From Planctomycetota bacterium (lineage in GTDB: Bacteria; Planctomycetota; UBA11346): a stretch of DNA of 61,786 nucleotides. The notes below the pieces were generated by a model. The model had not been told where the DNA came from and did no database searches. It worked only from the letters and a program-made list of their open reading frames with translations. Positions 20,536 to 38,326 of the stretch are shown here, one piece after another (the first letter of the stretch is position 1; every line of letters begins with the position of its first letter). The stretch covers positions 1 through 61,786 of the forward strand of contig REDP01000245.1 of NCBI GenBank assembly GCA_007693455.1, in the 5' to 3' direction. A program made the translations under genes and the position numbers.

Positions 20536-20583
20536 GGTTGCACGCAGAAGTTTTAGGTTGCACAAAGTAGTGTAAGGTTGCAA
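20536..20583 (+). promoter_or_regulatory. Three direct GGTTGCA(C/A) boxes at exact 20-bp phasing; candidate MraZ operator / dcw promoter element
   Basis: GGTTGCAC at 20536-20543 and 20556-20563; GGTTGCAA at 20576-20583. They lie immediately upstream of the likely mraZ start. Confidence 0.5.
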
Positions 20584-20607
20584 TGTGTGCTTATCGGATG
20601 GGCCGCC

Positions 20608-22585: not shown

Positions 22586-24369
22586 GTCCTCCGGGAGCCT
22601 CTCACCATGGCCAACCCTGGCGCACCTGCATGACTGCAGTGGTGTTTATGGGTTTTTTGGCGATGATCGTCTGGCGCCTATATGATTTGCAGGTGGTGCA
22701 TGCCGATGATTTGAGCGAGCGCGCTTTACGGCAGCGCATGCGTACCGTTGCCATAGAAGCCCAGCGCGGAAATATTTTTGACACCAACGGCAAGCCCTTG
22801 GTGGTGTCGCACGCTGGCTGGGATCTCTTTGCTGATCCCACGTACATGAACGATAAACTGCAGGCAACGGTGAAAATCGCTCAAATAGCAGGGGTTGATC
22901 GTGCAACCTTGCGTGGCCATTTTGAAGCAGCGACCAATGGTCGCCGTATTTTACGTAATGTCGATGACGATGTAGCCGAGGCCATTCGAGAGCTTGGCCT
23001 GCAGGGGGTGTATCTGCGTCGTAGCTATCGCCGTGATTATCCCGCCGATGCTTTAGCGCCGCAGGTCTTGGGCTTTGTTCTCGATGATGAGCGCGGGGGT
23101 GGTGGCATCGAAGCGCGCTTCGATGAACATCTTCGTGGCATTCCTGGCAGTGAACGGATTCTCGTAGATGTGCGTGGGCGTCGTATGCTAGGACAAGACC
23201 CAGAACGGACTCCAGCCCGTCCAGGTGGCCATGTGCATCTCACCCTTGATGCCAATATTCAAATGGCCGCGGAAAGGGCTGTTCTTGGTGCCGTTGAGCG
23301 TCATCGCCCCGAGTCGGCAAGTGCCATCGTATTGCGTCCAGCTACTGGCGAAGTTTTGGCTATGGTGAGTTACCCCAGTTTTGATCCGCGCCAATTGGCT
23401 GAGGCAGAAATGGCCGGTTTCCGTAATAATGCCCTTGCTTTTGTGTATGAATCAGGGTCGGTGATGAAGCCACTAATGGTAGGAGCGGCCGTAGCCGATG
23501 GGCTTAGTGGCTGGGATCAGCGTATTTTCTGTGAGAACGGTCAGTGGAATATCCAGGTTGGACGAGCCCGGCGTTTATTGCGCGACCATAGCTGGCGGCA
23601 AGGCGGCAATGGCTGGCTTACGATCACCGAAGCACTGGCTAAATCTGATAATATTATGCCCGCCAAGCTTGGCCTCAAGATGGGGCCAGAACGTATGCAC
23701 CATTGGGCGGACACCTTTAATTTTGGTCGGCGTACGGGCATCGAATTGCCAGGAGAAAATGTTGGAATTATGCGTCCCAAGGAGCGCTGGGACCGAATTA
23801 ACTCGGCAATCTCTGTGCCCATTGGCTACGAAGTTTCGGTGACTCCGTTGCAGATGATTGCGGCTCATGCGGCAGTGGCCAATCGTGGCGTATGGAACAC
23901 GCCCCATCTTGTTTCCCATCTGCAGCGCTGGAGTGATGAACGGCAACGTTGGATTGAAGCTTCGCCAGAGGTCCGTCGTGAACGGCGTCGGATTTTGAGT
24001 GAAGCTGATTCCCTCGCCATAGAAAGTGCCATGCGCACGGTAATGGAGTCAGGAACAGGCCGTCGCGTGCAATTGGATGGATGGTCAAGTGCTGGTAAAA
24101 CAGGTACCACCCGCAAGGTGATCAATGGCCAATACTCTTCCGAACATCACATTGGTTCTCTCGTGGCCTGGGCGCCAGCTCGTCCCGATCGCACGCCTGA
24201 TTTCATTGCCTTGGTTACGGTTGATGCTCCAGAGAAAGGCACGGGCTACTTCGGTGGTTTGACTGCCGGTCCTGTGGTCAAAGAGATTCTTGAATTTGCT
24301 TTGGATTATGAGGGTGTACCCCGTGATGATGAGGTGAAAGCCCAGGGTAATCAGGGGCGGGGACGGTGA
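22582..24369 (+). CDS. ftsI: Penicillin-binding protein 3-type transpeptidase
   Basis: N-terminal TM, SVMK (SxxK), SDN (SxN) and KTGT motifs. dcw position. Confidence 0.88.
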   Translation: MSPPGASHHGQPWRTCMTAVVFMGFLAMIVWRLYDLQVVHADDLSERALRQRMRTVAIEAQRGNIFDTNGKPLVVSHAGWDLFADPTYMNDKLQATVKIAQIAGVDRATLRGHFEAATNGRRILRNVDDDVAEAIRELGLQGVYLRRSYRRDYPADALAPQVLGFVLDDERGGGGIEARFDEHLRGIPGSERILVDVRGRRMLGQDPERTPARPGGHVHLTLDANIQMAAERAVLGAVERHRPESASAIVLRPATGEVLAMVSYPSFDPRQLAEAEMAGFRNNALAFVYESGSVMKPLMVGAAVADGLSGWDQRIFCENGQWNIQVGRARRLLRDHSWRQGGNGWLTITEALAKSDNIMPAKLGLKMGPERMHHWADTFNFGRRTGIELPGENVGIMRPKERWDRINSAISVPIGYEVSVTPLQMIAAHAAVANRGVWNTPHLVSHLQRWSDERQRWIEASPEVRRERRRILSEADSLAIESAMRTVMESGTGRRVQLDGWSSAGKTGTTRKVINGQYSSEHHIGSLVAWAPARPDRTPDFIALVTVDAPEKGTGYFGGLTAGPVVKEILEFALDYEGVPRDDEVKAQGNQGRGR

Positions 24370-25787
24370 TGATGACTCTTCAGCGTCATTATACTCCTTT
24401 ACTTCCCCCCATTGATGTGGCCGCTGGCAACCTCCATCGCCATATCCAAGAAGTACGACCGGGCGATATACTGGTAACCTGGGCCCATGGGACGCAGCTT
24501 GATGAGATCTGTACCCAGGCCCTTCGTGCCCAAGCGTCCGCCATTGTTTGTGAGCACCGTCCAAGCGTGGATTACCCCTCTGACCGTGTGCATGTGGTGG
24601 AAAATGCGCGCAAAGCGTTCGCCCTCATGAGTGGTGTCCGCCATGGCATGCCCCCCCCCCAGCCCCTTGTCGGGGTTACTGGTACCGATGGCAAGACCTC
24701 GGTAGTACATTGCATCAGCCATTGCCTGGGAGACCAAGCGGCCAGCGTGGGATCCCTGGGGATGCGCTGCGGGGTACTCTACGAAGATACTGGCCACACC
24801 TCTCCCCCCAGTGATGTATTGCATCGATTTTTGGCGCAATTGCCTCCACAATGTCCTGGTGTGGCGATGGAAATAAGCAGTCATGCGGCACATCAAGAGC
24901 GTTGCGCCGGATTGCCCTTACGCGGCCTTGCCTTTACTGGCCTGGGACATGACCATTTGGATTACCATGGCAGTATGCGTGCCTACCGTGACGCGAAACT
25001 GCAAACGGTATCACTGTTGGCACCAGGTGCGTGGCTTGTGGTGAATGCCGATGATGCTCATGCCGTGGATTTCATTCGTGCCGCTCGAGGGATAACCGAT
25101 ACCATCGTGGAACTTGGTGTGCGCCGTGGTGATGCCTTGCTGCGCCGCCGTGAAGCGGGCTGGTCGTTACTCTTTGCCGGCCAACACTACCACCTCGCCC
25201 TTCCCCAAGCCGCCGCCCATCAGGCCTGGAATGCTGCCGCTGGAGCATTGCTCGCTCATGCCTGCGGCATCCCTTTGCCCCAAGCCTTTGCCCGTATCGG
25301 CAGCTGCCCCCCGGTGCCAGGACGGTTGGAACGCTTGGCGGATAACCCTATAACCTATGTTGATTATGCCTGCACGCCAGAAGCGGTGCGACGCGTAGTG
25401 GCCTGTCTGCGGCAGCGCTACCCGCAGCGTCGTCTCGTGGTAGTATTTGGATGTGGCGGAAATCGCGATAAGGGAAAACGTGGTCCCATGGGCGATGCTG
25501 CCGCCGAAGCTGATTATGCGATTATCACCAATGATAATCCGCGTGATGAAGATCCTCAGGCCATTGCTGATGCCATCCGAGCGGATATGGGTCAGCAGCC
25601 TGGTGAGCGCATGTCTATCATTCTTGATCGTCGTCAAGCGATTGACCACGCGCGTGTGCAAGCAGGGCACGATGGGGTGGTTGCGGTTTTGGGTAAGGGC
25701 CATGAGACGGTGCAAATTATTGGCGACCAGCGTATTGCTTGGAGTGACCGCGATTATATCGCCGGACTTCAGGGAGCGGTCTCATGA
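24366..25787 (+). CDS. murE: UDP-N-acetylmuramoyl-tripeptide synthetase (Mur ligase E)
   Basis: GVTGTDGKTS P-loop and DNPR motif. Position ftsI-murE-murF. Start is GTG 24366, or ATG 24369/24372. Confidence 0.9.
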   Translation: MMMTLQRHYTPLLPPIDVAAGNLHRHIQEVRPGDILVTWAHGTQLDEICTQALRAQASAIVCEHRPSVDYPSDRVHVVENARKAFALMSGVRHGMPPPQPLVGVTGTDGKTSVVHCISHCLGDQAASVGSLGMRCGVLYEDTGHTSPPSDVLHRFLAQLPPQCPGVAMEISSHAAHQERCAGLPLRGLAFTGLGHDHLDYHGSMRAYRDAKLQTVSLLAPGAWLVVNADDAHAVDFIRAARGITDTIVELGVRRGDALLRRREAGWSLLFAGQHYHLALPQAAAHQAWNAAAGALLAHACGIPLPQAFARIGSCPPVPGRLERLADNPITYVDYACTPEAVRRVVACLRQRYPQRRLVVVFGCGGNRDKGKRGPMGDAAAEADYAIITNDNPRDEDPQAIADAIRADMGQQPGERMSIILDRRQAIDHARVQAGHDGVVAVLGKGHETVQIIGDQRIAWSDRDYIAGLQGAVS

Positions 25788-27214
25788 CTGCAGCCCCCTT
25801 TGACTTGCAGGCCGATGAAGCACAGGCGCTTACAGGGGGCCGCTGGCACGGTATCCCGCGCACCGTGCGCATTCATGGCGCGACGATTGATTCGCGGCAA
25901 GTACGCCCAGGCATGGCCTTTGCCGCACTCAGTGGCAGTAAAGTTGATGGCCATGATTTTGCTGAAACTGCGGCGGGTGATGGCGCAGTGCTTATTATCG
26001 CCGAGCGTCAGGTAGAAACCCCCGTTCCAGTTTTGCTGGTGGATGATGTTACAACTGCCTTGGGAGCCTTGGCGACTGAGTTCCGTCGCCGTTATCAGGG
26101 TGCCACATGGATTGCCGTGGCGGGAGCCAATGGCAAAACCACGGTTAAAGAACTGCTTCGTGCCGCATGTAATGAACATGCGCCCACCCATGCCACCGAG
26201 GGAAATCGCAATAACCACCTTGGTGTGCCCTTGACCATCCTCTCCACTCCCGCCGACTGCCGTTGGTGTGTGGTGGAGTTGGGGGCCAATAAGGGAGGCG
26301 AAATCGCCGAGCTCGCAGCCATGGTGCAGCCACACGTGGGCGTATGCACGGGGATTGGCCCTGCCCACCTTGAGGGCTATGGTGATCTTGCAGGTGTTGC
26401 TCGTGGTGAGGGTGCGGTATTTGCCGCAGTCCCACAAGGGGGTCCCTGTATCTTTGGTCGCGAAGGGCTTGAACAGGTGGCAGTGGCGGCAGGAACCTCG
26501 GCGCAAGCATTAGAGCAGATTATCATTGATATAGCACACGGCCGCGACCTCCTTGTGGTGGGGAGTGATCGTTGTCCCATCATTGGTGAAGCACGACCTG
26601 ACGGTATTCTCATGCGCTGCGGCGAGGGTGAAGTGACCTTACCGTTGTTGGGCCGCCATAATTTGGCCAATGCACATGTGGCCTGGCGGGCAGCAGTTGC
26701 GGCAGGAGTCATTCCCGAATTAGCCCTGCGTGGCCTGAAGCATGTAAAGCCAGTGCCTGGGCGCTTGCGTCTTGTTCATCTTCAGCACGGACATCGCCTC
26801 TACGATGACTGCTACAATGCCAATCCAGCCAGCATGTATGCCGCCCTTGAGGAGCTGTCCCGCTCCCATGGCGCGCGCTTAGCCGTGCTCGGGGCAATGG
26901 GAGAGCTGGGAGAAACCAGTAGCGCCCTGCATCACCAGATTGGCGCTGATGCGGCACGGCTGGGCTTGCCCCTGCTAGTGGTAGGTGATGGCCCATTACC
27001 GCAGGCCCTGCTTGCCGGCTATATTGACGCTGGTGGCCGCGACCATCTCCACATGGATCACGTTGCCACCGCATTATTGCAGTTGCATCAGCGTTTAGGC
27101 GTTGGACCTACCGCGGTATTGGTGAAAGCCAGTCGTGCCGCTGGCTTGGATCAGATTGTTCATGAGTTGATCGCTGCTTATGGCGAGGATCGGGAAGCGA
27201 GCCCTCAATGCTAA
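25784..27214 (+). CDS. murF: UDP-MurNAc-pentapeptide synthetase
   Basis: VAGANGKTT P-loop; Mur ligase middle and C-terminal domains; ATGA overlap with murE. Confidence 0.9.
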   Translation: MTAAPFDLQADEAQALTGGRWHGIPRTVRIHGATIDSRQVRPGMAFAALSGSKVDGHDFAETAAGDGAVLIIAERQVETPVPVLLVDDVTTALGALATEFRRRYQGATWIAVAGANGKTTVKELLRAACNEHAPTHATEGNRNNHLGVPLTILSTPADCRWCVVELGANKGGEIAELAAMVQPHVGVCTGIGPAHLEGYGDLAGVARGEGAVFAAVPQGGPCIFGREGLEQVAVAAGTSAQALEQIIIDIAHGRDLLVVGSDRCPIIGEARPDGILMRCGEGEVTLPLLGRHNLANAHVAWRAAVAAGVIPELALRGLKHVKPVPGRLRLVHLQHGHRLYDDCYNANPASMYAALEELSRSHGARLAVLGAMGELGETSSALHHQIGADAARLGLPLLVVGDGPLPQALLAGYIDAGGRDHLHMDHVATALLQLHQRLGVGPTAVLVKASRAAGLDQIVHELIAAYGEDREASPQC

Positions 27215-28380
27215 ACTTCCTGGTGCAGTTCAGTGATGTCTTTGGACCATTTCGACTCTTTGGCTACACCTCCTTCCGTGCGGTTATGGCCGCCCTTACC
27301 GCCTTTGTTCTGATGATGATTATTATGCCGCGGCTTATCGCTTGGTTACGGCGCAAACGCTTCGGCGAACAGGGGGCCAAGGGTGATGGCGCCATAGTCG
27401 TCGACACCATGCGCCGCGCCAAGGCTGGCACTCCAACCATGGGTGGACTGGGATTGGTGGTCTGTGTGGTGATCACCGCCTTGCTTTGGTGTGACCCTCG
27501 CCTGGGGAAAACATGGTTGCTGATCTGCGGTATTATAGCCTTTGCTGGAATGGGTTTTATTGACGATCGCACCAAGATTTTCAAGGGTGCCAAAGGCATG
27601 TCCATCCGCGTAAAGCTTGTCTTGCAGATCCTCCTTGCCGCAGGTTTTGGCTTGTGGTTTTGGGCCTTAGATGATGGCGTGGTGGTTGCCAGTATCATTA
27701 CCCATGTCAGTGAAGCCAAAACCATTCTTGCCCAAGAGGGAGTTTTTGCTGATTCCGTGGCCCATCATATTATTCTTCCATTTATGTCTCTAGAGTCTGC
27801 CTTGCCAGTAGGGCTGGGTATTGTGCTCTGGGCCGTGGTAATGCTTTTTGCCTGTTCGAATGCGGTCAATTTCACCGATGGCATGGATGGCCTGGCTTCT
27901 GGTACCATGCTGATCGCAGTGCTGGCATTCATGGTGATCGCCTATATCACCAGTCACTTTATTGCCGCCCACTACCTCAAGATTCCCTACATTCGCGGCA
28001 ATGAGCATGTGGCTGTGTATTGTGCCACTCTTGCGGGTGCCTGTTTGGGGTTCTTGTGGTTTAACGCTCCACCAGCGCAGGTGTTTATGGGTGATACCGG
28101 ATCGCAGGGCTTGGGTGGTGCGTTAGCGCTTATTGCCCTTACCACCAAACAAGAATTCCTCATTTTGCTAGTGGGCTTTGTCTTTTTTGCCGAAGCCCTG
28201 TCTGTACTCCTGCAAGTATGCAGTTACCGCCTCTGCGGTGGACGCCGTATTTTCTTATGTGCCCCCATTCATCATCATTTCCAGTATCTTGGATGGAGTG
28301 AAACCAAGATTGTCATGCGTTTCTGGCTTATTGCTGGTCTCGCCGCCCTCCTAGCCCTTGCCACCCTCAAGCTGCGTTAA
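27208..28380 (+). CDS. mraY: Phospho-N-acetylmuramoyl-pentapeptide transferase
   Basis: NAVNFTDGMDGLA and APIHHHF motifs; polytopic membrane protein. Confidence 0.95.
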   Translation: MLNFLVQFSDVFGPFRLFGYTSFRAVMAALTAFVLMMIIMPRLIAWLRRKRFGEQGAKGDGAIVVDTMRRAKAGTPTMGGLGLVVCVVITALLWCDPRLGKTWLLICGIIAFAGMGFIDDRTKIFKGAKGMSIRVKLVLQILLAAGFGLWFWALDDGVVVASIITHVSEAKTILAQEGVFADSVAHHIILPFMSLESALPVGLGIVLWAVVMLFACSNAVNFTDGMDGLASGTMLIAVLAFMVIAYITSHFIAAHYLKIPYIRGNEHVAVYCATLAGACLGFLWFNAPPAQVFMGDTGSQGLGGALALIALTTKQEFLILLVGFVFFAEALSVLLQVCSYRLCGGRRIFLCAPIHHHFQYLGWSETKIVMRFWLIAGLAALLALATLKLR

Positions 28381-28388
28381 TCTAACCT

Positions 28389-29651
28389 ATGCACGCCACG
28401 ACCCTACGTTTCTGGTTATGGGGACTCACCCTTGCCCTCTGCGGCTTGGGTATGGTGATGGTGGCGTCAACGACAACCATCCGCGGAGCAGAGCTCGGCC
28501 TCAACTATCGTGCCATGAGTATTCAGGGCATGGCCTTTGTGGTGGGACTTATTGTTGCCGTAGTCATCTCCTTGTGCGGTATGCGCGTACTGCGCAATGG
28601 GTACTTAATCGCCATGGCAACCGTAGCCGTGGCGACATCATTGGTCGTCCTGCCCTACATTGCGACGCCCATTAATGGCGCCTATCGCTGGATTAATCTG
28701 GGTCCCTTTAATATCCAGCCAGCGGAATTAGCCAAAGTGGTTATGGTTTTGGCCGCGGCTTGGCATTTGGTGCGCCTACAAGAACGCGTGCGCGTCCACT
28801 GGGATGGTGTTTTACTTCCCTTGGCTGGCTTTGGCGTAGTTGCCTTTCTCGTCTATCGCACCCAAGACTTGGGCTCTGTGGTAGTGATGGGCTTAGTCCT
28901 CTGGGCGATGATGTTTTTCGCGCGTACTCGCTGGTTGTATTTTACCGTTTTGGGTCTGGCGAGCCTGCCCATGGTTGCCTATGTCACCGTCTTTAGTCAA
29001 GGCTATCGCCGAGATCGCATGCTCGCATTCCGTGACCCCTGGACGGCAGATGGTCCTGCTGCCTATCATTTACAGCAGAGCGAGCTTTCGATTGGTTCTG
29101 GGGGGGTCTTTGGCGTAGGGCTTGGACAGGGGGCCTCGAAGCAGGGGTTCTTACCAGAATTTCATACCGACTTTGTCTACGCCATCATTTGTGAAGAATT
29201 GGGAATGCTGGGTGGAGTTGCGGTGGCTGGGGCCTTTTTACTCTTGGTTTTAGTGGGCCTGAGTATCGCCAATCGTAGTGAAGATCGCTATGCCCGTTTG
29301 GTCGCCATTGGGGCCACGGTGCTCTTGGGTTTCCAAGCCTTTTGGAACATGCTCGTAGTCACTGGGGCGGTGCCGACCAAGGGACTTACTCTTCCCTTCA
29401 TTAGTTATGGTGGCACCAGCCTGGTGGTGAGCATGGCTCTCATCGGGATGCTTGACGCGGCCGCGCGCACCATTCCCGTTACGGCGCCTGGAAGATCACT
29501 GAGTAGCACTCGCATTGGAGCGATTGTGGTGCAGCGCGATCGTCCCACCGCCGCGCAACGCCTGCGCCGTATCACTACCGATCCAGTATCGCGAGCCTGG
29601 CACCGTCTTACCGGTAGTCATCAGCGCCGAGAAGGGGGGCGATCCCCTTAA
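28389..29651 (+). CDS. ftsW: SEDS-family peptidoglycan glycosyltransferase FtsW
   Basis: QPAELAKV, PEFHTDFVYAIICEELG and LPFISYGGTS motifs; dcw position. Confidence 0.9.
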   Translation: MHATTLRFWLWGLTLALCGLGMVMVASTTTIRGAELGLNYRAMSIQGMAFVVGLIVAVVISLCGMRVLRNGYLIAMATVAVATSLVVLPYIATPINGAYRWINLGPFNIQPAELAKVVMVLAAAWHLVRLQERVRVHWDGVLLPLAGFGVVAFLVYRTQDLGSVVVMGLVLWAMMFFARTRWLYFTVLGLASLPMVAYVTVFSQGYRRDRMLAFRDPWTADGPAAYHLQQSELSIGSGGVFGVGLGQGASKQGFLPEFHTDFVYAIICEELGMLGGVAVAGAFLLLVLVGLSIANRSEDRYARLVAIGATVLLGFQAFWNMLVVTGAVPTKGLTLPFISYGGTSLVVSMALIGMLDAAARTIPVTAPGRSLSSTRIGAIVVQRDRPTAAQRLRRITTDPVSRAWHRLTGSHQRREGGRSP

Positions 29652-29854
29652 TGCGTTCCAAAGTTTTTTTTCAACTTACACAGTTTTCCTGTCAGCGCGC
29701 TGGCAGGAGCATACCCCTTGGTGACGTGTGTGGCGACACCGTGGGCTATGCTGTTGGGAGTCCCGAGCAGCGTCGGTTCTCCTTCCGTGATCGAGCCATC
29801 CCATCGTCAGTGGTTCCCCGCAAGGCCACATCAGACGATGATGGCTCCCCTGTC

Positions 29855-29927
29855 GCATCCCATCACCTCCCTGAAACGATATCCATGCCCCCGCAACGTG
29901 GATGGTATCAGGGAGGTGTTGGGATGC
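29855..29927 (+). other. Long imperfect hairpin (19 of 20 bp) pairing an anti-SD-like arm with an SD-like arm
   Basis: GCATCCCATCACCTCCCTGA (29855-29874) pairs with TCAGGGAGGTGTTGGGATGC (29908-29927), with one T-T mismatch. Confidence 0.6.
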
Positions 29928-29999
29928 CCAGCATCACTCATCGGTGTGGCGATGAACGGTGCTATGGGTTAATGGTCACCCTGCCAGCGCTTCTTTCAG

Positions 30000-30345
30000 G
30001 GTTTTTTTGTTTCGGGGGGCGATGCCCCCCAAACCCCCCGACTGGCTTTGTCGGGGCTCGCGTTTCGCGGCTGCGCCGCTGCACGCGTGGCTGGATCGCT
30101 TCGCGATTATATCCAGCCACCGCCCCTCGGCGCCAGACAGGGCTTCGCCCTCGTTTGGCAGAGGTTTTTCGCGGTATTGTCTCGGACAGATTTGGCGCGT
30201 TTCGCGGCTGCGCCGCTGTACGCGTGGCTGGGGGCTTGGAGCTCGAAGGCAGTCGCAGCCCCCAAGAGACAAAAAGCGCTTCGACCTCGTTTTGGGGAGG
30301 TTTTTTTCGGTGGAGCTGGGGTCACCCGCCACTGGCTTTGTTGGG
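30000..30345 (+). repeat. Degenerate ~137-bp tandem repeat (about 2.5 units) with a conserved 35-nt box and unit-specific hairpins
   Basis: Box GCGTTTCGCGGCTGCGCCGCTG(C/T)ACGCGTGGCTGG at 30060-30094 and 30197-30231 (34/35 identical). ACTGGCTTTGT(C/T)GGGG at 30041 and 30331. GCTTCG(C/A)CCTCGTTT..GAGG+T-run at 30142-30170 and 30278-30308. Confidence 0.75.
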
Positions 30346-30546
30346 GGTTCCCGGGACCGCCGGTCTCCCGACCGGCCCATCGAGATCGCTTGCGCGCACA
30401 GGCGTGGTCTCCCTCAGGGCACTCCACAACCCCAGATTTCAGGCGTCAATGCGTTTTCTCACCTCGCTGTTTCAGGCGGTCAGGAGAGTGGCGTTTCCCG
30501 GTCCGTTTTCCTTCAGCTGGGCAGGTTGGGGTGATGGGATGATGGT

Positions 30547-31629
30547 ATGAGACGAGGGCATGGGATCGTATTGTGTGGTGGGGGCACGGGGGGGCATATT
30601 ATGCCTGGTCTTGCTCTGGCTGCGGCGTGTCGGGCCTTAGGTGCTGAGGATGTGCGTTGGATTGGCGATCCTGATCGCTTGGAAGCACAGTTGGTACCGC
30701 AGGCGAATATTCCACTATTGCCTTGGGGCTTATCGCGGCCGCGGCTGCGTTCGCCGCGTTGGTGGATGCAGGCCCTACGTCGTGCCTGGCATTGCTGGCG
30801 GAGTATGCGCACCCAGCCACCGCGGGTGGTGGTGGCCTTGGGTGGCTATGCGGCATTGCTGCCTGGTCTCTTGGCCGCGTTGCAGCGCCGTCCATTGGTG
30901 GTGCTCGAGCAAAACGCCTGGCCTGGTCGCACCAATCGTCTGCTGGCGCGAGTGGCGGACGTGGTGGTTACCCAGTTTGCTGAGGTCGAACGCCATTTGC
31001 CGCGGGCCAAGGCACGGCGCCTGGGTAATCCTGTGCGTGCGTTCCCCCGTCGCCTGCGCGGCCAGGATCCCACCATTACCGTTTTGATTATGGGTGGAAG
31101 TTTAAGCGCCCGCTCCCTCAATGATGCGGTGAGTGCGTCGGCTCCTGCCCTGTCTCAAATAGGCGGTGTACGCATTATTCATTTGGCGGGTGCCGATGAC
31201 TGTCAGCGCATGGCAGAAGTCTACGCGCAGCATGGCCTGGATGCCCAGGTGCACGCTTTTATTCAGGATATGGAGCCCATCTACGCAGCAGCTGATTTGG
31301 CCCTGTGTCGGGCTGGGGCCACCACTGTGGCGGAGTGCTGTAGTTGTGGCCTTGGTGCTATTTATATTCCCTTGCCCTGGGCAGCAGAGGATCATCAGAC
31401 TGCCAATGCTCGTGCTGTGGCACGGGTGGGTGGGGCGGTGGTGCTGCCCCAGGATGCGCTCAATGCCGCTTCTCTGCGCTATCTGCTGACCCGTCTTTTG
31501 CAGGATCGTAGTGTGCTCCGGCGTTTGGGGGAACGTGCCGCGAGCATTGATTGTCCGCAGGCTGCTCGGCGCGTGGCTCTCCTGTGTCAAGCTGTGGTTG
31601 GACATGCCAAGGGGGCGTCTCGATGGTAG
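30547..31629 (+). CDS. murG: UDP-GlcNAc:lipid I GlcNAc transferase
   Basis: GGGTGGHIMPGLALA N-terminal motif; glycosyltransferase family 28 layout. Confidence 0.92.
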   Translation: MRRGHGIVLCGGGTGGHIMPGLALAAACRALGAEDVRWIGDPDRLEAQLVPQANIPLLPWGLSRPRLRSPRWWMQALRRAWHCWRSMRTQPPRVVVALGGYAALLPGLLAALQRRPLVVLEQNAWPGRTNRLLARVADVVVTQFAEVERHLPRAKARRLGNPVRAFPRRLRGQDPTITVLIMGGSLSARSLNDAVSASAPALSQIGGVRIIHLAGADDCQRMAEVYAQHGLDAQVHAFIQDMEPIYAAADLALCRAGATTVAECCSCGLGAIYIPLPWAAEDHQTANARAVARVGGAVVLPQDALNAASLRYLLTRLLQDRSVLRRLGERAASIDCPQAARRVALLCQAVVGHAKGASRW

Positions 31630-33014
31630 TTTCAGGCCTCGATTTCAGGGCCGCCCATGTGCATCTCATGGGGATCGCTGGCGCGGGTATGAGCGCACTT
31701 GTGCCCCTACTGCAGCAAGCAGGTGCGCAGGTGAGCGGTTGTGATTTGGCGGCAGTGCCGCCCAATCACCATCTCCATGGCTGCGGGGTCTCCATTGCCT
31801 TGGGGCACGATGCGGGGCATTTGCCTGGGGTGGATATAGTGGTGCATTCTTCGGCAGTGGATCAGCGCAATCCCGAACTCCAGGCGGCGCGCGAGGCCGA
31901 CATTACCGTCCTCTCTCGGCAGGCCTGTTTGGCGGAATTACTGCGCGGGCGGCGCACCCTGGCAGTGGCAGGATCGCACGGCAAAACCTCGACCGCCTGG
32001 ATGATCGGCCACCTGCTTCTGGCCCAGGGGCGCGACCCAGTGGTGCTGGTAGGAGGGGCAGTTGCCCATCTCGGCGGCGGTGGTGCGCATGTGGGGGCGG
32101 GAGATGTGGTAGTGGTGGAGGTGGATGAAAGCGATGGCGGCTTTGCCCATACCAGTCCAGAAATCGCCGTGCTTACCAATCTGGAGGCCGAGCACTTGGA
32201 TCATTATGGTAGCGAAGAATCGTTGTACCGAGCCTTTGCCCAGTGGTTGCAAGCAGTGCCAGCACAGGGCACGCTGATTATTCCTGATCAGGGCCTACCA
32301 CCAGGGCTTCTCGATCAGGTGCAGGCGCAACAACGAGCGGTAGGACTTTGCTCTGGATCGGTACAGGCGCATGATCTCCACTGCCATCCAGAAGGATCGC
32401 AGTGTCGTGTGCACATAGATGGTGTGGATTACGGCCCTCTCAACGTGCCCATTCCTGGCACCCATATGGTGCATAATGCGCTGATGGCAGTTGCTGCAGT
32501 ACATGCCCTGTGTGGTGAAGCTCCTTGTGCTGCCATGGCCAGCAGCGGCCGTGTAGGTCGTCGATTTACCGATCATGGTCGTTATCGCGGGGTGCGGGTG
32601 ATCGAGGATTATGCCCATCATCCTACCGAAATCCGTGCTACTTTGGCTGCGGCCGCCTTGGCTGGTGGGCGTCTCCAGGTTCTCTTTCAGCCCCATCGCT
32701 TTACTCGTACGCGCGATCTTCTGTCCTCCTTCGCCACGGCCTTTACCCAGGCCCATGCTCTGGCGGTGGTGCCGACTTATGCGGCGAGTGAAGCTCCTGT
32801 GGCTGGAGGTGATGCCGCAACCTTGGCCTCGGCAGTCATGCAAACCATGAGTGATCCCGCCCGTGTCCAGTTTGTCCATCATTGGGCCACGGCCATTGCC
32901 TTTATTTGTGCCCACGCTCGCTACGGCGACACGGTATTGATCTTGGGTGCAGGCGATATTGGCGAGAGTGTTCCCGATGTAGTGCATGAGCTGCAAAGTA
33001 CGGAGGCGCACTAA
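31623..33014 (+). CDS. murC: UDP-N-acetylmuramate--L-alanine ligase
   Basis: Start taken at ATG 31623 (7-nt overlap with murG), giving MVVSGLDFRAAHVHLMGIAGAGMSAL. AGSHGKTST P-loop. Confidence 0.92.
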   Translation: MVVSGLDFRAAHVHLMGIAGAGMSALVPLLQQAGAQVSGCDLAAVPPNHHLHGCGVSIALGHDAGHLPGVDIVVHSSAVDQRNPELQAAREADITVLSRQACLAELLRGRRTLAVAGSHGKTSTAWMIGHLLLAQGRDPVVLVGGAVAHLGGGGAHVGAGDVVVVEVDESDGGFAHTSPEIAVLTNLEAEHLDHYGSEESLYRAFAQWLQAVPAQGTLIIPDQGLPPGLLDQVQAQQRAVGLCSGSVQAHDLHCHPEGSQCRVHIDGVDYGPLNVPIPGTHMVHNALMAVAAVHALCGEAPCAAMASSGRVGRRFTDHGRYRGVRVIEDYAHHPTEIRATLAAAALAGGRLQVLFQPHRFTRTRDLLSSFATAFTQAHALAVVPTYAASEAPVAGGDAATLASAVMQTMSDPARVQFVHHWATAIAFICAHARYGDTVLILGAGDIGESVPDVVHELQSTEAH

Positions 33015-33958
33015 TGTGGTCGTCTGCTCTACGTCAACGCAATGACATTGCCCAGATCCCCCTGGCCCAGCTTACCACTTGGCGCATTGGGGGCATGGCA
33101 GACGTACTTACCCTGAGTAATGAGCAGGACATTCCCGAGGTAATGGCGCAAAGCGAGCATCATTTTTTAGGGAAGGGGGCCAATCTTTTAGTCAGCGATG
33201 CCCCTTTGCGTAAACCAGTGATCCGGCTGGATCGGCGCTTTGCATCCAGTGAATGGGTGGCTCCAGGTTTATTGCGAGTTGGGGCTGCGCATGATCTCGC
33301 AGTGTTGGTGGGACGGTGCTGTCGTGAAGGATGGGGTGGTTTACAGGGATTAGCGGGGGTTCCGGCCAGTATTGGTGGCGCATTGCGCATGAATGCAGGT
33401 ACGGCCCATGCGTGGATTCTTGATGTGGTGGAGCGGGTACAGGTTGTTGTGCCTGGTGCAGGGCAGCTGCAATGGCTCCATCGTTCAGAACTCACTCCAG
33501 TATATCGCAGTGCCGGTTTGCCCCCAGGGACCTGGTTGCTCGCCTGCGAGCTGCGCTTGCACCGGGCGGATCCTGAAGAACTGCTGGCTCATATGCGTCA
33601 GTGTAAGCAGGCCAAGGCAGCCTCGCAGCCCCTTGCCCAGGCCTCCGCTGGATGTGTGTTTAAGAACCCGCAGCCAGACTTGCCGGCAGGAAAACTCATT
33701 GATAGCTTGGGGCTCAAGGGACGCTCCTGTGGAGCTGCGGTTGTTTCAACGCAGCATGCGAATTTTATTATCAATACAGGCGGCGCGACGGCGGCTCAGG
33801 TGGCGCGATTGATACGTCATGTGCGCGCCGTTGCCAAGCAACAAGCAGATATTGATTTGCAGATGGAAGTGCAGGTATGGGAAATGGATGACCAATGGTT
33901 TGCCCCGCAACGGGGTGACGAGGTGCCGCCGCAGGAGGAAGATGATCATGTACGTTGA
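33014..33958 (+). CDS. murB: UDP-N-acetylenolpyruvoylglucosamine reductase
   Basis: FAD-binding-type N-terminus (TTWRIGG...), GSAGCVFKNP-like block (ASAGCVFKNP). TAATG junction with murC. Confidence 0.9.
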   Translation: MWSSALRQRNDIAQIPLAQLTTWRIGGMADVLTLSNEQDIPEVMAQSEHHFLGKGANLLVSDAPLRKPVIRLDRRFASSEWVAPGLLRVGAAHDLAVLVGRCCREGWGGLQGLAGVPASIGGALRMNAGTAHAWILDVVERVQVVVPGAGQLQWLHRSELTPVYRSAGLPPGTWLLACELRLHRADPEELLAHMRQCKQAKAASQPLAQASAGCVFKNPQPDLPAGKLIDSLGLKGRSCGAAVVSTQHANFIINTGGATAAQVARLIRHVRAVAKQQADIDLQMEVQVWEMDDQWFAPQRGDEVPPQEEDDHVR

Positions 33959-34865
33959 CGTATTGTACGGTGGTCCAGGGCATGAACGTGCCATATCCAT
34001 TCAATCCGGCCAAGCTTTTGCTGCGGCGCTGCGGGAGCGTGGCTTTGATGTGATGGAGGTCATGGTTGATCAGCAATGTGATTGTTCGGCGTTGCGAGCG
34101 CAGGCCGTGGTTGCCAACCTCATCCATGGTCAATATGGTGAAGATGGCCAGTTGCAGCAGGTCTTGCAGGAGGCGGGTAAATCATTTATCGGCTCTGATG
34201 CGCAGGCGAGTGCCCTGTGCATGGATAAAGGGCGCATGCGTGCAAAGGCTCAAGAGCATGGGGTTCCCGTTGCCTGGGGTATGGTACTTGACCCCCGCAA
34301 TCCAGCAGCTGCGCGCGACTGCGTCCCGCCAACAATGACCGGATTAGTGATCAAGCCCTGCGCTGATGGTTCATCGGTGGGTATGCGTCTTTTGCCCAGT
34401 AAAAGTTTTCTCCTTCCCGCTCTGGAAGAATTACTTGCTGAATTGGGGCCAGTGCCGTTCTTGGTGGAGGAGCGATTGCCAGGCCCAGAGTATTCGGTTC
34501 CGTTGTTAGAGCGCGATGGAAAGATTCATCCCTTGCCTCCGATTTGCATTATTCCGGCCCAGGGTGTCTATGACTTTGCGGCAAAATATGAGCGTAATGA
34601 CACCCAATATACCAAGCTCGATGATCCCGCGTTATATGCGCTTTTGCAGGAGCGAGCGGTGACGTGTTTTCGCTCAGCAGGATGTCGACACCTCGCACGG
34701 GTTGATTTTATGGCTGCCGCAGACGGTGATCCTAAGATGCTGGAGGTCAACACCTTGCCAGGATTTACCAGTCATTCCTTAGTGCCCATGGCGGCACAGT
34801 GGGAGGGTATGTCATTTGCCCAATTATGTGAGCATGTAGTGGGATTGGCGGCGCCGGTGGCGTAG
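33948..34865 (+). CDS. ddl: D-alanine--D-alanine ligase
   Basis: ATG 33948 follows AGGAGG (33933-33938) and gives MYVDVLYGGPGHERAISIQSG. ATP-grasp blocks; EVNTLPGFT near the C-terminus. Confidence 0.9.
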   Translation: MYVDVLYGGPGHERAISIQSGQAFAAALRERGFDVMEVMVDQQCDCSALRAQAVVANLIHGQYGEDGQLQQVLQEAGKSFIGSDAQASALCMDKGRMRAKAQEHGVPVAWGMVLDPRNPAAARDCVPPTMTGLVIKPCADGSSVGMRLLPSKSFLLPALEELLAELGPVPFLVEERLPGPEYSVPLLERDGKIHPLPPICIIPAQGVYDFAAKYERNDTQYTKLDDPALYALLQERAVTCFRSAGCRHLARVDFMAAADGDPKMLEVNTLPGFTSHSLVPMAAQWEGMSFAQLCEHVVGLAAPVA

Positions 34866-34921
34866 TTGACTCGGCTAGATGAGCAAGAAGAAAAAGTTTT
34901 TTATTTGAGGAGATCACAAGT

Positions 34922-35902
34922 ATGCCGCGAAAAAAAGTTCAGACCCACAGTGTTGATGATGCCCAAGATTTATTGGCAGTAGCCCAGCGTAAGCGCGCTG
35001 GTAAGCAGGCTCCAGCAGCAGTTCAAACAAGCCGCAAAAAAGCTGGGGAGCGAGAAGAAAGCGTGAGTCGCGGGGATAGTGACCCATGGAATGCCCATAG
35101 TGGAGATGATGATACGCGAAGGGGGGCCGATTGGCCCACATTCTTGCTGACAGCAGTGGCTGTTGTGGTAATCGTTCTCACCGGAATGTCCTTGCGTATG
35201 GCGCCTCCCGCCGCGCAGCATACTGAAGTACTCGCGCCCGATGGTGTGCCCACTGATCTTATGCGTGAGTGGCTACGAGGATTTCATGATAGCGAACTTC
35301 TCTTCCGTCGTCCAGACGCCCAAACCCTTGATGCCTTTGCCGCCTATTTACGTAATCGTACGGCTGTGGACGAGGTGCATTCGGTGCGTTTACGGCATCA
35401 TCATCAGGCTGGTAGACATCCCATGAAGTTGGCCATAGATGTCACTTTGCATCGGCCCATGCTGCCTGTGATGCTGGCTAATGGAGAGCGAGCCTGGCTT
35501 GGCGAGCGCGGCCATATTCTTCCTGGAATATTACCCGGCCCCAGTGATCGTCCGTTGGTTCGTGGTATTGAGTATGCTGACGGCAGTATAGTTGACGAAA
35601 TTGTTGCCGTATGGCCTCAATTGCATACGCGTTTGCACCGAACAATGCCAGGACTTATTCGCGAGATTCACGCCCATGCGCCATTGCCCAATAGTGATGA
35701 TCATGGAGTGATTTTCACCACCAGCCCAGGCACCGTGTTGGTATGGGGCAATCCCGAAGAAAGTCGTTATGGGGTCAGTCGCGAACAGCGACTGAGTAAC
35801 CTCATTCATACCCTACGCTCTCAGGGTGACTTACGCCGCGTTCCCGAGATCAATGTGCGCTTTCATGAGCCCTTCGCTGTGGTTGCCTCGCAACCCCGTT
35901 AA
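34922..35902 (+). CDS. ftsQ: FtsQ/DivIB-like cell division protein
   Basis: Basic N-terminal tail, single TM (FLLTAVAVVVIVLTGM), then a ~230-aa periplasmic domain. It sits right after ddl. GAGGAG SD present. Confidence 0.6.
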   Translation: MPRKKVQTHSVDDAQDLLAVAQRKRAGKQAPAAVQTSRKKAGEREESVSRGDSDPWNAHSGDDDTRRGADWPTFLLTAVAVVVIVLTGMSLRMAPPAAQHTEVLAPDGVPTDLMREWLRGFHDSELLFRRPDAQTLDAFAAYLRNRTAVDEVHSVRLRHHHQAGRHPMKLAIDVTLHRPMLPVMLANGERAWLGERGHILPGILPGPSDRPLVRGIEYADGSIVDEIVAVWPQLHTRLHRTMPGLIREIHAHAPLPNSDDHGVIFTTSPGTVLVWGNPEESRYGVSREQRLSNLIHTLRSQGDLRRVPEINVRFHEPFAVVASQPR

Positions 35903-36199
35903 AGACCGCTGGGACGAGTAGTTGACGGAGTTTTCCACATTGACGGTGCAGGTGAGGCCTGAGCCAACTGTCAAGGGATAATGTCAAGGAATCCTGCCTT
36001 TGTGCCCTCACACGGTGTAATAATCTCTAGGCGAGCGACTTTGGATATCACGTAAAACATTCATAAATATCGGTTTAGCTTGATTCTCGTAGGGCGGGGG
36101 GCGCTTCGGCGCAATTATCGTTGAATGCCGTCTACTGGCCGAGGGAGCGAGCGTTGCTCTCTCTGCTGACAACTTTTCCACATTTCACTTTTCTTCTTC

Positions 36200-37144
36200 T
36201 CAGGCCTTGACTACTGGTAGGAGACAGGTAAGAGCCTCGGCGTACGGGGCAAAAACGGCACTATGACCAGCGCCCACAGGGATCGTGGAATGGGCTCCAT
36301 CCAAATAGAGTCGCATGCCAGGGGCGGCGGCAGTAAGGCGGAGACAGTGAGGCGGCATCTGCACGCCACGAGTCAGGCGAAGGTCATCGGCGTTATTGCC
36401 ATCGCTGCGCTGTACCCGATCACGGGAAACCCGCGTGTGGAAGGGTTCGCGCACTTGGTAGAGTAAGGCTGGCTGGCAAGGATGGCAGGAGTGATGAAAG
36501 CCTGCGCTGGCAATCGCCGCAGTGGCTCCTGCAGCAGTGGCAATCCACACCCCTGAACTGTTATGGAGTTCGCTGGCTTCCTGATCCTCGCTGATTTGGT
36601 AGCGGGTCATCGCCGCAGGGTTCTTATTGGTAAAGAGGCAATCATTAATGATGGGGTAGGGGCCTTGGCCACTCACTTGCCCATCAGGGCCGTGAATGGT
36701 TACCTGTAAGCGCGGGAAATGCTCCAGCTGTTCTCTGCCCTTATGGTATGCATCCAGTGTGGGCTGAACCTGAGCCACGCTACAGCGGGTAAAATGTCCC
36801 ACCGAATGTCGCGGATCGGAGTTGACCGCAAGCAAGCGCTGTCCCGGATGCATCCACGCATGAATCCCGAAAACAGTGCCATCGCCGCCAACGCTGACGA
36901 TGCAGTCAGCACCAGCAATGTCCTCGGGAGTGCAGTCGCCTACCCAGCATTCATGGACGAGATGCTTGCCAATGGCGCTGCGTACCTGGTCTACCGTGCT
37001 ATGATGCTGGCGATGAGCCGCCAATAACTGTGCTTCATCAAAAACATGGGCGCGAATAAGCTGTCGTCGATCGCGTTCGCTCATACGCTCTAAGGCTGTG
37101 CGCTTGACCACCAAGAGAATGCGTGCCTGGCGTCTGGGGGGCAT
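36200..37144 (-). CDS. NAD kinase-like protein (divergent)
   Basis: VSVGGDGT motif, LLAVNSD...VGHFT (resembling GIN.G.LGFL), INDCLF, and SSGVWIATAAGATAAIASAGF (a degenerate TPTGSTAY..SAGG). Confidence 0.65.
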   Translation of the reverse strand: MPPRRQARILLVVKRTALERMSERDRRQLIRAHVFDEAQLLAAHRQHHSTVDQVRSAIGKHLVHECWVGDCTPEDIAGADCIVSVGGDGTVFGIHAWMHPGQRLLAVNSDPRHSVGHFTRCSVAQVQPTLDAYHKGREQLEHFPRLQVTIHGPDGQVSGQGPYPIINDCLFTNKNPAAMTRYQISEDQEASELHNSSGVWIATAAGATAAIASAGFHHSCHPCQPALLYQVREPFHTRVSRDRVQRSDGNNADDLRLTRGVQMPPHCLRLTAAAPGMRLYLDGAHSTIPVGAGHSAVFAPYAEALTCLLPVVKA

Positions 37145-37156
37145 GAAACGGCTCCT

Positions 37157-38326
37157 TTATCGCGGTTGCCAGCCTGTGAGCCAACTCCGCGCTTCGGCAT
37201 CGGCAGCGAGTATGTCTTCCAAGCTATGGCCGTATTTGGCGCTGCTCAGGGCATCAACGGCTTCAGCGATACCATGGGTGATATCGACAAAGCGAATGTC
37301 CTGGGCCAGGAAGCGCTCCACCGCCACTTCATTGGCGGCATTAAATATCACCGGCGCAATGCCCCCTAATTGTGCACAATGGCGTCCCAATTCTAGGGCA
37401 GGGAAACGCTTGTGGTCAGGCGTTTCAAAATCAAGACGTGCAATAGCCAATAGGTCCGGACAGGCTACTGGCCCACTACGATGGTAGGGCCAGGTCAGGG
37501 CATATTGAATCGGCGTGCGCATATCGGGGGCGCCCAACTGAGCCATGAGAGAACCATCAGCGAAGGCAACCAGGGAATGAATTATGCTTTGCGGATGGAC
37601 CACGACTTCAATCCGTGACACATCAATGGCAAAGAGGTGATGCGCCTCGATGACCTCTAATGCCTTATTCATCAGGGTGGCGGAATCGATGGTGATTTTT
37701 GCCCCCATGCTCCAGTTGGGATGGTTGAGGGCCTGCTCTACGGTGACCTGACTGAGATTATGGATGGTGCGAAACGGCCCACCCGAAGCGGTCAGTAGTA
37801 ACTGACTGATATCACTCTGGCGGTGATGTTCGAGGCATTGGAAGATGGCAGAATGCTCGCTATCCACGGGCAATAGGGTGGCACCATAGTGCATCGCCTC
37901 GGCGGTGATGAGTTCGCCCGCCATAACCAGGGGCTCTTTATTGGCAATTGCCACACGCTTGCCAGAGCGCACTGCCGCAAGCGTAGGTTCTAAGCCAGCC
38001 CCGCCAACAATAGCCGTCACTACGGTTGGGCAGTGTTCATCGCCTGCCGCTTCACACAGGGCAGCTGCTCCTCCGCACACCTCAATGTGCGGCTGGTCAG
38101 CAAGCAGGCCGCGTAATCGTCCCACATCTTCGCCGCGTGCGCACACTACCCGTTGCACGCCATGGACACGAGCCTGCTCAGCAAGTGCCTCAAGGCGTGT
38201 ATGCGCGGTAAGAGTGTGTACGGGAATGCTGAGGTGGCGAGCAACGTCAAGGGTGCTCACCCCAATGGAACCAGTGCTGCCCAGTACACACAGTGGGCGG
38301 TGTTGATGGGCATCGCGGTCGATCAT
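37157..38326 (-). CDS. dxr: 1-deoxy-D-xylulose 5-phosphate reductoisomerase
   Basis: LGSTGSIGVSTLDV NADPH-binding start; ANKE and DSEHSA-type blocks (VDSEHSAIFQC). Confidence 0.93.
   Translation of the reverse strand: MIDRDAHQHRPLCVLGSTGSIGVSTLDVARHLSIPVHTLTAHTRLEALAEQARVHGVQRVVCARGEDVGRLRGLLADQPHIEVCGGAAALCEAAGDEHCPTVVTAIVGGAGLEPTLAAVRSGKRVAIANKEPLVMAGELITAEAMHYGATLLPVDSEHSAIFQCLEHHRQSDISQLLLTASGGPFRTIHNLSQVTVEQALNHPNWSMGAKITIDSATLMNKALEVIEAHHLFAIDVSRIEVVVHPQSIIHSLVAFADGSLMAQLGAPDMRTPIQYALTWPYHRSGPVACPDLLAIARLDFETPDHKRFPALELGRHCAQLGGIAPVIFNAANEVAVERFLAQDIRFVDITHGIAEAVDALSSAKYGHSLEDILAADAEARSWLTGWQPR

Follow-up and report, generated by a model that had tools for sequence, protein, structure and literature searches.

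The ftsW-murG spacer and its open frame

We analysed contig REDP01000245.1 of a Planctomycetota bacterium (assembly GCA_007693455.1; 61,786 nt, hereafter the window), which carries on its plus strand a compact division and cell wall (dcw) gene cluster. The junctions that an initial annotation, made from the letters of the DNA, had listed along this cluster were all correct (ATGA, GTGA, ATGA, a 7-nt overlap, an 8-nt gap, TAATG, ATGA, a 7-nt overlap, TAATG and an 11-nt overlap), and ftsW and murG are separated by a gap of 895 nt. This spacer is spanned by a 299-codon open reading frame (ORF), here ORF299, which docks on both neighbours as the annotation had described (Table 1). The spacer shows no coding signature, is under selection at the nucleotide level, has a conserved plus-strand structure and contains a hairpin module that recurs at the same junction in other lineages, built on 11 different stems. 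We consider it very probable that it is a structured functional RNA rather than a gene.

Relatives were gathered by protein searches and contig look-ups (43 loci fetched in all). The closest public FtsW (72% identity) belongs to a Planctomycetota metagenome-assembled genome (L001, contig REDX01000201), with an ftsW-murG spacer of 277 nt. One ENA sample yielded two contigs, L034 and L037, with FtsW 92% and MurG 88% identical to those of the window; both contigs end inside a long spacer. FtsW identity is lower in L035/L038 (66%, spacer of 232 nt), L041 (61%, 186 nt), L036 (60%, 343 nt) and L042 (58%, 161 nt). Locus L039 (MurG 65%) has a spacer of 145 nt, and there is none in L040 (FtsW 61%) and L043 (FtsW 55%, MurG 64%), where murG overlaps ftsW. 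Distant Planctomycetota loci (L007, L009, L013 and others) were set aside: judged by the size of the upstream ORF alone, they look like PBP2-RodA pairs and not like dcw clusters. An FtsW alignment used to scan metagenomes recovered nothing closer than distant RodA/FtsW relatives (28-35%), which were of no use. In L038, a pilon-polished long-read contig, murE and murF lie in pieces between 4463 and 7329 (313 aa; 298 + 199 aa), for which frameshift errors are likelier than pseudogenes.

An assembly artefact had been named among the outcomes that would refute the initial annotation. Logan contigs of run SRR7901804, built independently though possibly from the same reads, and hence a check of the assembly and no second sample, match the window at 24836-30032 (100% identity) and 30254-37629 (99.96%), so that both borders are present in them; a different sample contains an orthologue of the segment (L034, L037). 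These two observations contradict such an artefact. The repeat zone at 30033-30253 (221 nt) is uncovered by the Logan contigs, and the copy number of the 136-nt unit described below is therefore that of the window assembly only.

Every coding statistic applied to ORF299 gave a negative answer. GC content at codon positions 1/2/3 is 0.61/0.61/0.59, against ~0.65-0.73/0.42-0.55/0.50-0.60 in the neighbouring genes, and the codon score is -0.18 bits/codon and negative in all three frames, against +0.17 to +0.33 in frame for 13 real genes. Among the codons that had been singled out as rare in the flanking genes, AGG and AGA are indeed raised (10-13 per 1000 codons vs 0.5 per 1000, ~20-fold) and CGA and ATA slightly so, but TTA is not. 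Differences between ORF299 and L034 are spread over the three codon positions (32/26/32 of 124 each) with no third-position excess, in contrast to ftsW, in which 92% of amino acids are identical and 60% of four-fold sites have changed, and frame-shifting indels are present after codon ~125. A word-indexed search of 5.8 G proteins returned no homologue, and no Pfam or NCBIfam family was assigned. Three HMMER matches among 1.84 G representatives were rejected, being weak (~25%) and summed over tandem repeats of giant proteins. Frame conservation and codon usage, which had been proposed as ways to judge the frame, thus gave a divided result: the coding statistics fail, and the docked frame is still open for at least 187 codons in L034. 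ORF299 is no protein gene under amino-acid selection.

Conservation and folding of the spacer

When ftsW, mraY and murG of the window are compared with those of L034/L037, 33-65% of four-fold sites have changed (for the most part 50-65%); the figure is 53-55% for the 60 codons adjoining each border of the spacer. Over its first 560 nt the spacer is ~78-82% identical to L034/L037, with invariant blocks of 25-60 nt, and its repeat unit is 88-92% identical; the last ~180 nt are close to neutrality (~65% identical to L037). Because the spacer is far more conserved than four-fold sites and lacks a coding signature, the constraint acts on the nucleotides themselves, and the sequence comparison shows purifying selection at that level. 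Recent recombination as the source of this conservation was ruled out, since synonymous divergence stays at 0.53-0.65 up to both borders.

The 5' part of the spacer folds into a domain closed by a long-range helix. For positions 29680-30000 the minimum free energy is -164.6 kcal/mol (z -7.6). Besides the hairpins that we name H1 and H2 and a long variable hairpin (I1) inserted between them, the domain holds two further hairpins. All 92 of its 92 pairs are kept in L034 (RNAalifold and pair counts), 9 of them through compensatory changes on both sides and ~12 through G-U, compared with 0-2 compensated pairs and 35-51% pairing in slid controls. Even I1, whose sequence has diverged from L034, has 5 compensated pairs. 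The 21 G-U cells of the domain would be A-C on the opposite strand, which identifies the operon's mRNA (plus) strand as the functional one. A noncoding structured RNA was one of the two possibilities left by the initial annotation, which had also named an analysis of covariation as the way to examine it. With compensatory pairs standing at 9 against 0-2 in the controls, coding statistics that fail and no real homologues, this possibility is the one borne out. The structure corresponds to no family in Rfam 15: positions 28000-32000 of the window, L001 and L034-L037 gave no relevant match at E<=1, and a scan of the whole window at gathering thresholds returned one tRNA only.

The closing helix resembles part of a terminator. 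In both the window and L034 it has 11 bp and is followed by UUCUUUC...U7; in L001 and L038 the whole element is instead closed by a 16-bp helix (P0), whose 5' arm lies within the last ftsW codons and which is followed by U5 (L001) or U7 (L038). A GC-rich helix with an immediate U-tract is therefore present in the window, L034, L001 and L038. In the window the 5' arm of the closing helix is shared with a local palindromic hairpin (I7, 29688-29707), which would compete for it and is a candidate anti-terminator. The TAATG at the ftsW stop is kept in L034. A scan of the spacer for sigma-70 promoters found none.

The 3' half is built largely of repeats. The 35-nt repeat noted earlier was recovered as 36 nt (30059-30094 and 30196-30231; 97% identical, 137 nt apart) and is part of a 136-nt tandem array over 30059-30305, within a hairpin-rich unit at 30014-30347 that is present in ~1.8 copies with a period of 136. 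In the relative the unit occurs at least twice, closing contig L034 and opening contig L037, with 92% identity between these two copies, and one clear compensatory pair was found in the unit (GCGGC/GCCGC vs GGGGC/GCCCC). The second, partial copy contains a weak terminator-like hairpin with U7 at 30283-30309, and its stretch 30196-30347 is absent from the L037 contig. As a whole, the 3' half folds modestly better than shuffles (z -2.4). The segment had been compared to a REP-like (repetitive extragenic palindromic) insertion, but a second copy was found neither in the 62-kb window, where self-BLAST returned only the internal repeat and a hairpin, nor in the 43 loci, nor among plasmids and phages (blastn, distant mode).

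Table 1. Genes of the dcw cluster and features of the ftsW-murG spacer, in coordinates of the window.
Feature	Position	Strand	Description
mraZ-like	20578-21060	+	Pfam/NCBIfam
mraW	21332-22216	+	Pfam/NCBIfam
Small ORF	22259-22585	+	ftsL position
ftsI	22582-24369	+	Pfam/NCBIfam
murE	24366-25787	+	TIGR01085, 290 bits vs cut-off 257
murF	25784-27214	+	NCBIfam, 314 vs cut-off 289
mraY	27208-28380	+	Pfam/NCBIfam
ftsW	28389-29651	+	Pfam/NCBIfam
ftsW end	29632-29672	+	Hairpin AAGGGG-GGCGAT-CCCCTT; TAA 29649-29651 overlapping ATG 29651-29653; T8 at 29664-29671
ORF299	29651-30550	+	299-codon open frame; TAATG at ftsW stop, ATGA at murG start
Local hairpin I7	29688-29707	+	CCUGUCAG-CGCG-CUGGCAGG; palindrome; 7/8 pairs kept in L034
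5' structured domain	29697-29990	+	Closing helix GCGCUGGCAGG (29697-29707) with CCUGCCAGCGC (29980-29990)
Hairpin H1	29709-29751	+	Core 29720-29740; loop UGUGUGG; two compensatory pairs vs L034
Second long-range helix of 5' domain	29787-29792 with 29974-29979	+	From the fold; six further helices inside the domain
Long variable hairpin I1	29855-29927	+	26-nt arms, 88% complementary; lineage-specific insert between H1 and H2
Hairpin H2	29931-29962	+	Core UCAUCG-GUGUGG-CGAUGA (29938-29955); loop GUGUGG; identical in L034
U-rich tract	29991-30013	+	UUCUUUCAGGGUUUUUUUGUUUC, directly 3' of closing helix; U-rich in L034 too
Repeat unit, copy 1	30014-30175	+	88.5% identical to L037, ~90% to L034 end
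Hairpins of copy 1	30014-30030; 30036-30056; 30087-30120	+	GGGGGGC-GAU-GCCCCCC (30014-30030); CCCCGAC-UGGCUUU-GUCGGGG (30036-30056); GCGGC-UGC-GCCGC; GUGGCUGGAUCGC...GCGAU...AUCCAGCCAC (30087-30120)
Repeat unit, partial copy 2	30196-30347	+	36-nt repeat 30196-30231; 30250-30311; hairpin 30325-30347
Less conserved 3' part	30348-30526	+	~65% identical to L037; conserved hairpin CCGGUC-UCCC-GACCGG
Period-8 repeat	30527-30550	+	TGGGATGA x3; TGA in three frames (30532, 30540, 30548) at murG ATG 30547
murG	30547-31629	+	Pfam/NCBIfam
murC	31623-33014	+	NCBIfam, 369 vs cut-off 335
murB	33014-33958	+	Pfam/NCBIfam
ddl	33948-34865	+	Pfam/NCBIfam

The hairpin module and the open frame in relatives

A compact core, first noticed by eye and afterwards confirmed through folding and scans, is shared by the spacers of L001, L035/L038 and L036; in it a closing helix surrounds two hairpins with (U)GUGUGG loops. 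We used a regular-expression scan for hairpins, with shuffles and permutation of arms, in place of a covariance model, as MAFFT put L035 out of register and left three usable sequences. Hairpins with a GTGTGG loop were found in the ftsW-murG spacers of the window, L034, L001, L035/L038 and L036, always on the operon strand, and numbered at least 9 against 0.03 expected from shuffles (Poisson P ~5e-20). The 11 distinct hairpins have 11 different 5' arms, yet 62 of their 66 arm positions are paired, while permuted arms gave a mean of 31 and a maximum of 54. Loops conserved on stems that covary freely mark a recognised RNA hairpin, as opposed to a DNA site or a peptide, and the frame in which the motif is translated changes from lineage to lineage. 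Folding also set these elements apart from shuffles: the modules of L001 and L036 have z scores of -6.2, -4.9 and -5.0, and the complete elements of L001 and L038 have -5.4 and -6.8.

The core is present at the ftsW-murG junction even where FtsW identity to the window is 60-72%. In L036, positions 1621-1842 hold two complete modules of clamp and two hairpins in tandem (four GUGUGG hairpins), which shows that the module duplicates as a unit. From these comparisons, the ancestral core appears to be the closing helix round two (U)GUGUGG hairpins, and the 0.9 kb of the window would have grown from it by helices inserted between the two hairpins and duplication of a ~137-nt unit rich in hairpins. 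The element is particular to this junction in a subclade of uncultured Planctomycetota, and has no match in Rfam 15 or in the literature that we searched (on GUGUGG hairpin motifs, intercistronic RNA of dcw clusters and murD order in Planctomycetes), where nothing relevant was found. No conserved CCACAC-type complement that could serve the loops as a pseudoknot partner occurs in the spacers.

A comparison of this junction among relatives had been recommended from the start, and its outcome is uneven: spacers range from 0 to 895 nt, with the GUGUGG module in some lineages and absent from others. In the spacer of L041 (2889-3074) the module is absent, and GTGGTCCGTGGTC, present twice, together with its complement GACCACGGACCAC, would give a different long-range helix at the same junction. 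Elsewhere in the window, a GTGTGG-loop hairpin of 8 bp lies inside the mraY coding sequence (27455-27478, plus strand; UGGUGGUC-UGUGUGGU-GAUCACCG); chance alone would place about 1.6 such hairpins in the window, and it may mean nothing.

The open frame is another recurrent property of the junction. As noted earlier, all three plus-strand frames are free of stops over the 559 nt between 29973 and 30531, and only 4 A occur in 30301-30360. Local dinucleotide shuffles of this stretch average 6.0 stops (probability of none, 0.0002, or 0.022 once the second repeat copy is removed), and the corresponding probability for the whole ORF299 frame, given its composition, is 0.004-0.007. In L037, 367 nt are stop-free in all frames (P = 0.00075). 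In the window as in L037 the three frames are then shut by TGA-N5-TGA-N5-TGA, of which the last TGA overlaps the murG ATG; in L037 (363-386) the three TGA lie at 368, 376 and 384 and the homologous ATG at 383. The dcw cluster at 22582-34865 is A-poor on its coding strand in general (AT skew -0.16; murG 13.8% A); long spurious off-frame ORFs are therefore common in it, and the A-poverty of the segment is not special.

The window, L001, L035/L038, L036, L039 and L041 share an uninterrupted frame, +2 relative to ftsW, which begins with an NTG at or close to the stop of ftsW (in five lineages the two overlap, and in L035 the NTG lies ~10 nt upstream) and ends at the start of murG or just after it. 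A relay of two ATGA steps is present in L042, and in L040 and L043 ftsW and murG overlap directly. The docked frame of L034, open for at least 187 codons, stands beside frames with 2 and 6 stops, and its indels (+9, +3, +1+2, +1+1+10) sum to multiples of three while shifting the frame locally. Across lineages and corrected for composition, the openness of the frame gave a Fisher P of 0.036 for frame 2, which was chosen after the fact, and of 0.39 for any frame. The initial annotation held that the segment interrupts the coupling of ftsW and murG; this is doubtful, since coupling may be relayed by a frame that connects the stop of ftsW with the start of murG, both here and in five further lineages. 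ORF299 may act as a ribosome bridge, a plausible adjunct to the RNA.

Role of the element and alternative explanations

The spacer had been described as occupying the murD slot. The window does lack murD: none of the non-overlapped ORFs scanned with Pfam/NCBIfam (200 aa or longer) is MurD, and the three Mur ligases present exceed the curated cut-offs of MurE, MurF and MurC and not that of MurD. The canonical slot between mraY and ftsW, however, is shut here, with 8 nt between the two genes, and the segment is found one gene further downstream. In L001, L038, L039, L040 and L043 mraY is directly 5' of ftsW (4-45 nt apart; the gap is ~180 nt in L041), and murD is absent between the two in every relative that reaches upstream, including those with short spacers or none. 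Loss of murD from the mraY-ftsW slot thus characterises the clade as such and has nothing to do with the 0.9-kb segment. As relatives lack it there whatever their spacer length, from none to ~290 nt, nothing was displaced by the segment, contrary to the insertion that had been proposed. In these genomes murD must sit elsewhere, or its step must be done differently. The segment's six longest ORFs, four plus-strand and two minus-strand, were searched against Pfam and gave no Mur-ligase domain at E<=1, the sole match being a sub-threshold DUF2722.

Several ORFs of the window stand out for other reasons. An ORF of 326 aa at the FtsQ position after ddl (34922-35902, plus strand) has no Pfam/NCBIfam match, and L036, L038 and L039 have equally unannotated ORFs there. 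It is followed by no ftsA or ftsZ, the next genes being on the minus strand, which fits an FtsZ-less planctomycete. Downstream of rpoB-rpoC, where EF-G is expected by position, an ORF of 693 aa (14733-16814, plus strand) has no Pfam family at E<=1e-5, and another of 947 aa (56339-59182, plus strand) joins SBP_bac_1 and BPD_transp_1 domains in one polypeptide.

Taken together, we think the segment is probably a conserved, heavily folded, cis-acting intercistronic RNA on the plus strand of the dcw mRNA, distinct from a protein gene and unrelated to the absence of murD. It probably governs the way in which expression is carried over from ftsW to murG. How it would act can be proposed more tentatively. 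The closing helix with its adjoining U-tract could form a conditional terminator, a 3'-end stabiliser (or processing site), or both, after ftsW; the helix concerned would be the module's own in the window and L034 and the larger P0 in L001 and L035/L038. That helix would be melted by ribosomes that reach the end of ftsW (in L001 and L038 the 5' arm of P0 is made of its final codons) or by ribosomes that start again at the overlapping ATG and read the open frame. Read-through into murG-murC-murB-ddl would thereby be tied to translation of FtsW, and the GUGUGG loops might be docking sites for a putative RNA-binding factor or ligand that sets the fold. That the element is an attenuator or stability device of this type seems to us possible, at somewhat less than an even chance. 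A joint device, in which helix and U-tract terminate or process the transcript after ftsW unless ribosomes cross, a frame open in three phases and without meaning of its own is shut by the tri-frame TGA at the murG start, and the pairs of GUGUGG hairpins sense a putative factor or a cell-wall metabolite, is a more speculative proposal that we regard as unlikely.

A number of observations weigh against this interpretation. The deep comparison covers five motif-bearing lineages (the window, L034/L037, L001, L035/L038 and L036), and the 92-pair test uses two sequences only, with a structure derived from those same two. The spacer is absent in L040 and L043 and the motif is absent from the spacers of L039, L041 and L042, so that the element is dispensable in the wider clade. 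L036 (76% GC) has the module without a U-tract, the interior of the clamp is a multibranch of 60-280 nt (~270 nt here), atypical for an intrinsic terminator, and a simple terminator scan finds just a weak site at 30283-30302. Attenuation or stabilisation is something that we infer from sequence, the trans factor for the GUGUGG loops is putative, and the open frame, if heavily translated, would often melt the structure.

We compared the element to known systems. By analogy it would work most like an attenuator or a REP-type intercistronic stabiliser, and it lacks the defining features of the families compared (ACGR loops, GGA loops, dispersed copies, a compact terminator hairpin); its class is that of a cis-acting structured mRNA element. 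Intrinsic terminators and trp- or pyrBI-type attenuators share with it a GC-rich helix followed by a U-tract and a competing upstream hairpin that uses the same arm, and, as in ribosome-mediated attenuation, a frame runs over the 5' arm, so that ribosome position could decide the folding. Unlike in these systems, the helix closes a 60-280-nt multibranch and not a small loop, the site is intercistronic and not in a 5' leader, no regulatory codons are seen, and the element is absent or U-less in some relatives. REP hairpins and bacterial interspersed mosaic elements (BIME) of enterobacteria protect upstream mRNA and set differential expression. Like those of malE-malF, the hairpins described here are stable stem-loops at an operon gene boundary, variable in copy number and prone to duplication; REPs, however, have a conserved stem, hundreds of dispersed copies and mobilisation by RAYT transposases, while here the stems differ, the loop is conserved and the 62 kb and other loci hold no other copy.

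The guanidine-II (mini-ykkC) riboswitch is an Rfam family with a two-hairpin architecture and conserved loops. It resembles the module in its two adjacent hairpins on the mRNA strand, with conserved loops, covarying stems and a variable linker, in cis upstream of the regulated gene. The loops here are 6-7-nt (U)GUGUGG sequences instead of ACGR tetraloops, a closing helix clamps the pair, the context is ftsW-murG and not guanidine exporters, and Rfam returned no match at E<=1. Similarly, CsrA/RsmE sites and the CsrB and RsmZ sponges have repeated hairpins with G-rich loops, which here sometimes read GGA when the closing base is A, and two sites spaced suitably for a dimeric binder; the consensus, however, is GUGUGG and not A(N)GGA, with GG followed by A in 5 of the 11 distinct hairpins and by C or G in the others. 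With the large RNAs OLE, GOLLD, HEARO, ROOL and raiA the element has in common a size of 0.3-0.9 kb, a multi-helix fold and a narrow phylogenetic range, but their Rfam models do not match and it is set between co-directional genes of an operon, with an open frame running over it.

Other explanations account for part of these data. If ORF299 were an orphan gene for a 299-aa protein rich in R, G, P and S, possibly disordered and evolving fast within the operon, its length, docking and freedom from stops, improbable by composition, would be explained, as would its prediction by gene callers in the Logan and ENA assemblies and the first ~125 codons being in frame with L034. These codons, however, share short conserved blocks only, with peptide conservation that seems no higher than the ~80% nucleotide identity (judged by eye from the alignment). 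Codon periodicity is lacking, the substitutions are even over codon positions, the frame shifts after these codons, no homologue was found, and the bridging peptides of other lineages are unrelated and read the GUGUGG motif in different frames; such a gene is very unlikely. Even less credible is a remnant or displacement of murD, or an artefact, a set of explanations already contradicted: murD is indeed missing from the window, but the segment is outside its slot and free of Mur-ligase similarity, and the borders and the orthologue speak for a genuine segment. A selfish or neutral repeat expansion without cell function, in which a MITE- or REP-like insertion (MITE, miniature inverted-repeat transposable element) was followed by tandem duplication, would fit the variation in presence and length between lineages (0-895 nt), the 11-bp inverted repeat (I11) that flanks the 5' domain, the internal 136-nt duplication and the break of the assembly graph inside the segment. 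It seems quite improbable to us, given that no second copy was found in the window, the 43 loci or the plasmid and phage collections, that the segment is orthologous and collinear with L034/L037, conserved far beyond synonymous sites between borders without recent recombination, that its helices are maintained by compensatory changes, and that lineages with only 60-72% FtsW identity have the module at this very junction.

Two further explanations accept that the segment is functional. It might act in trans, as a large stable noncoding RNA released from the operon transcript or as a CsrB/RsmZ-like sponge titrating an RNA-binding regulator. Several hairpins with one conserved G-rich loop on free stems, four of them in the tandem modules of L036, are what a sponge would present, the very stable fold and long-range clamps with U-tracts could define a 3' end, and the unit is ~90% conserved. 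But the strictly fixed position at one operon junction argues for action in cis, no promoter-like site was found in the spacer scan, most lineages have two hairpins only, and any partner protein is putative, so that we find a trans role improbable. The other explanation is that the open frame itself is selected as a relay: ribosomes would re-initiate at the ftsW stop, read through and stop on the murG start, which would keep ftsW and murG translationally coupled and prevent polarity. This is compatible with the RNA element and may be part of it, and we judge the relay possible but less likely than not. In its favour are the docking at both ends, the +2 frame open in six lineages, the relay of L042 and the overlaps of L040 and L043, the L034 frame kept open despite stops in the other frames by indels that sum to multiples of three, and the stop-free stretches of 559 nt and 367 nt that precede a tri-frame TGA at the murG start. 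Corrected for composition, this signal is weak across lineages: GC-rich spacers are open simply through their base content, the window and L034/L037 are not independent, the stop-free probability rises when the repeat copy is removed, and the region was originally picked for this frame. In addition, the three TGA may just belong to a repeated GGGATGA motif that resembles a Shine-Dalgarno sequence, and translation across a structure of about -165 kcal/mol would be slow.

The preferred reading, a cis-acting RNA of the dcw mRNA, bears on both annotation and biology. Gene callers in two public assemblies call a protein where every coding test fails, which calls for caution with such predictions. 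If the ribosome bridge is true, selection can keep a frame open for the sake of translating it and not for its product. The two GUGUGG-capped hairpins in a clamp are a simple signature for a candidate new RNA family. Planctomycetota divide without FtsZ, and a selected RNA element at ftsW-murG would be a concrete handle on the regulation of their peptidoglycan and division genes; were the joint device to be true, the genes of lipid II synthesis would be coupled to the production of FtsW in these FtsZ-less bacteria.

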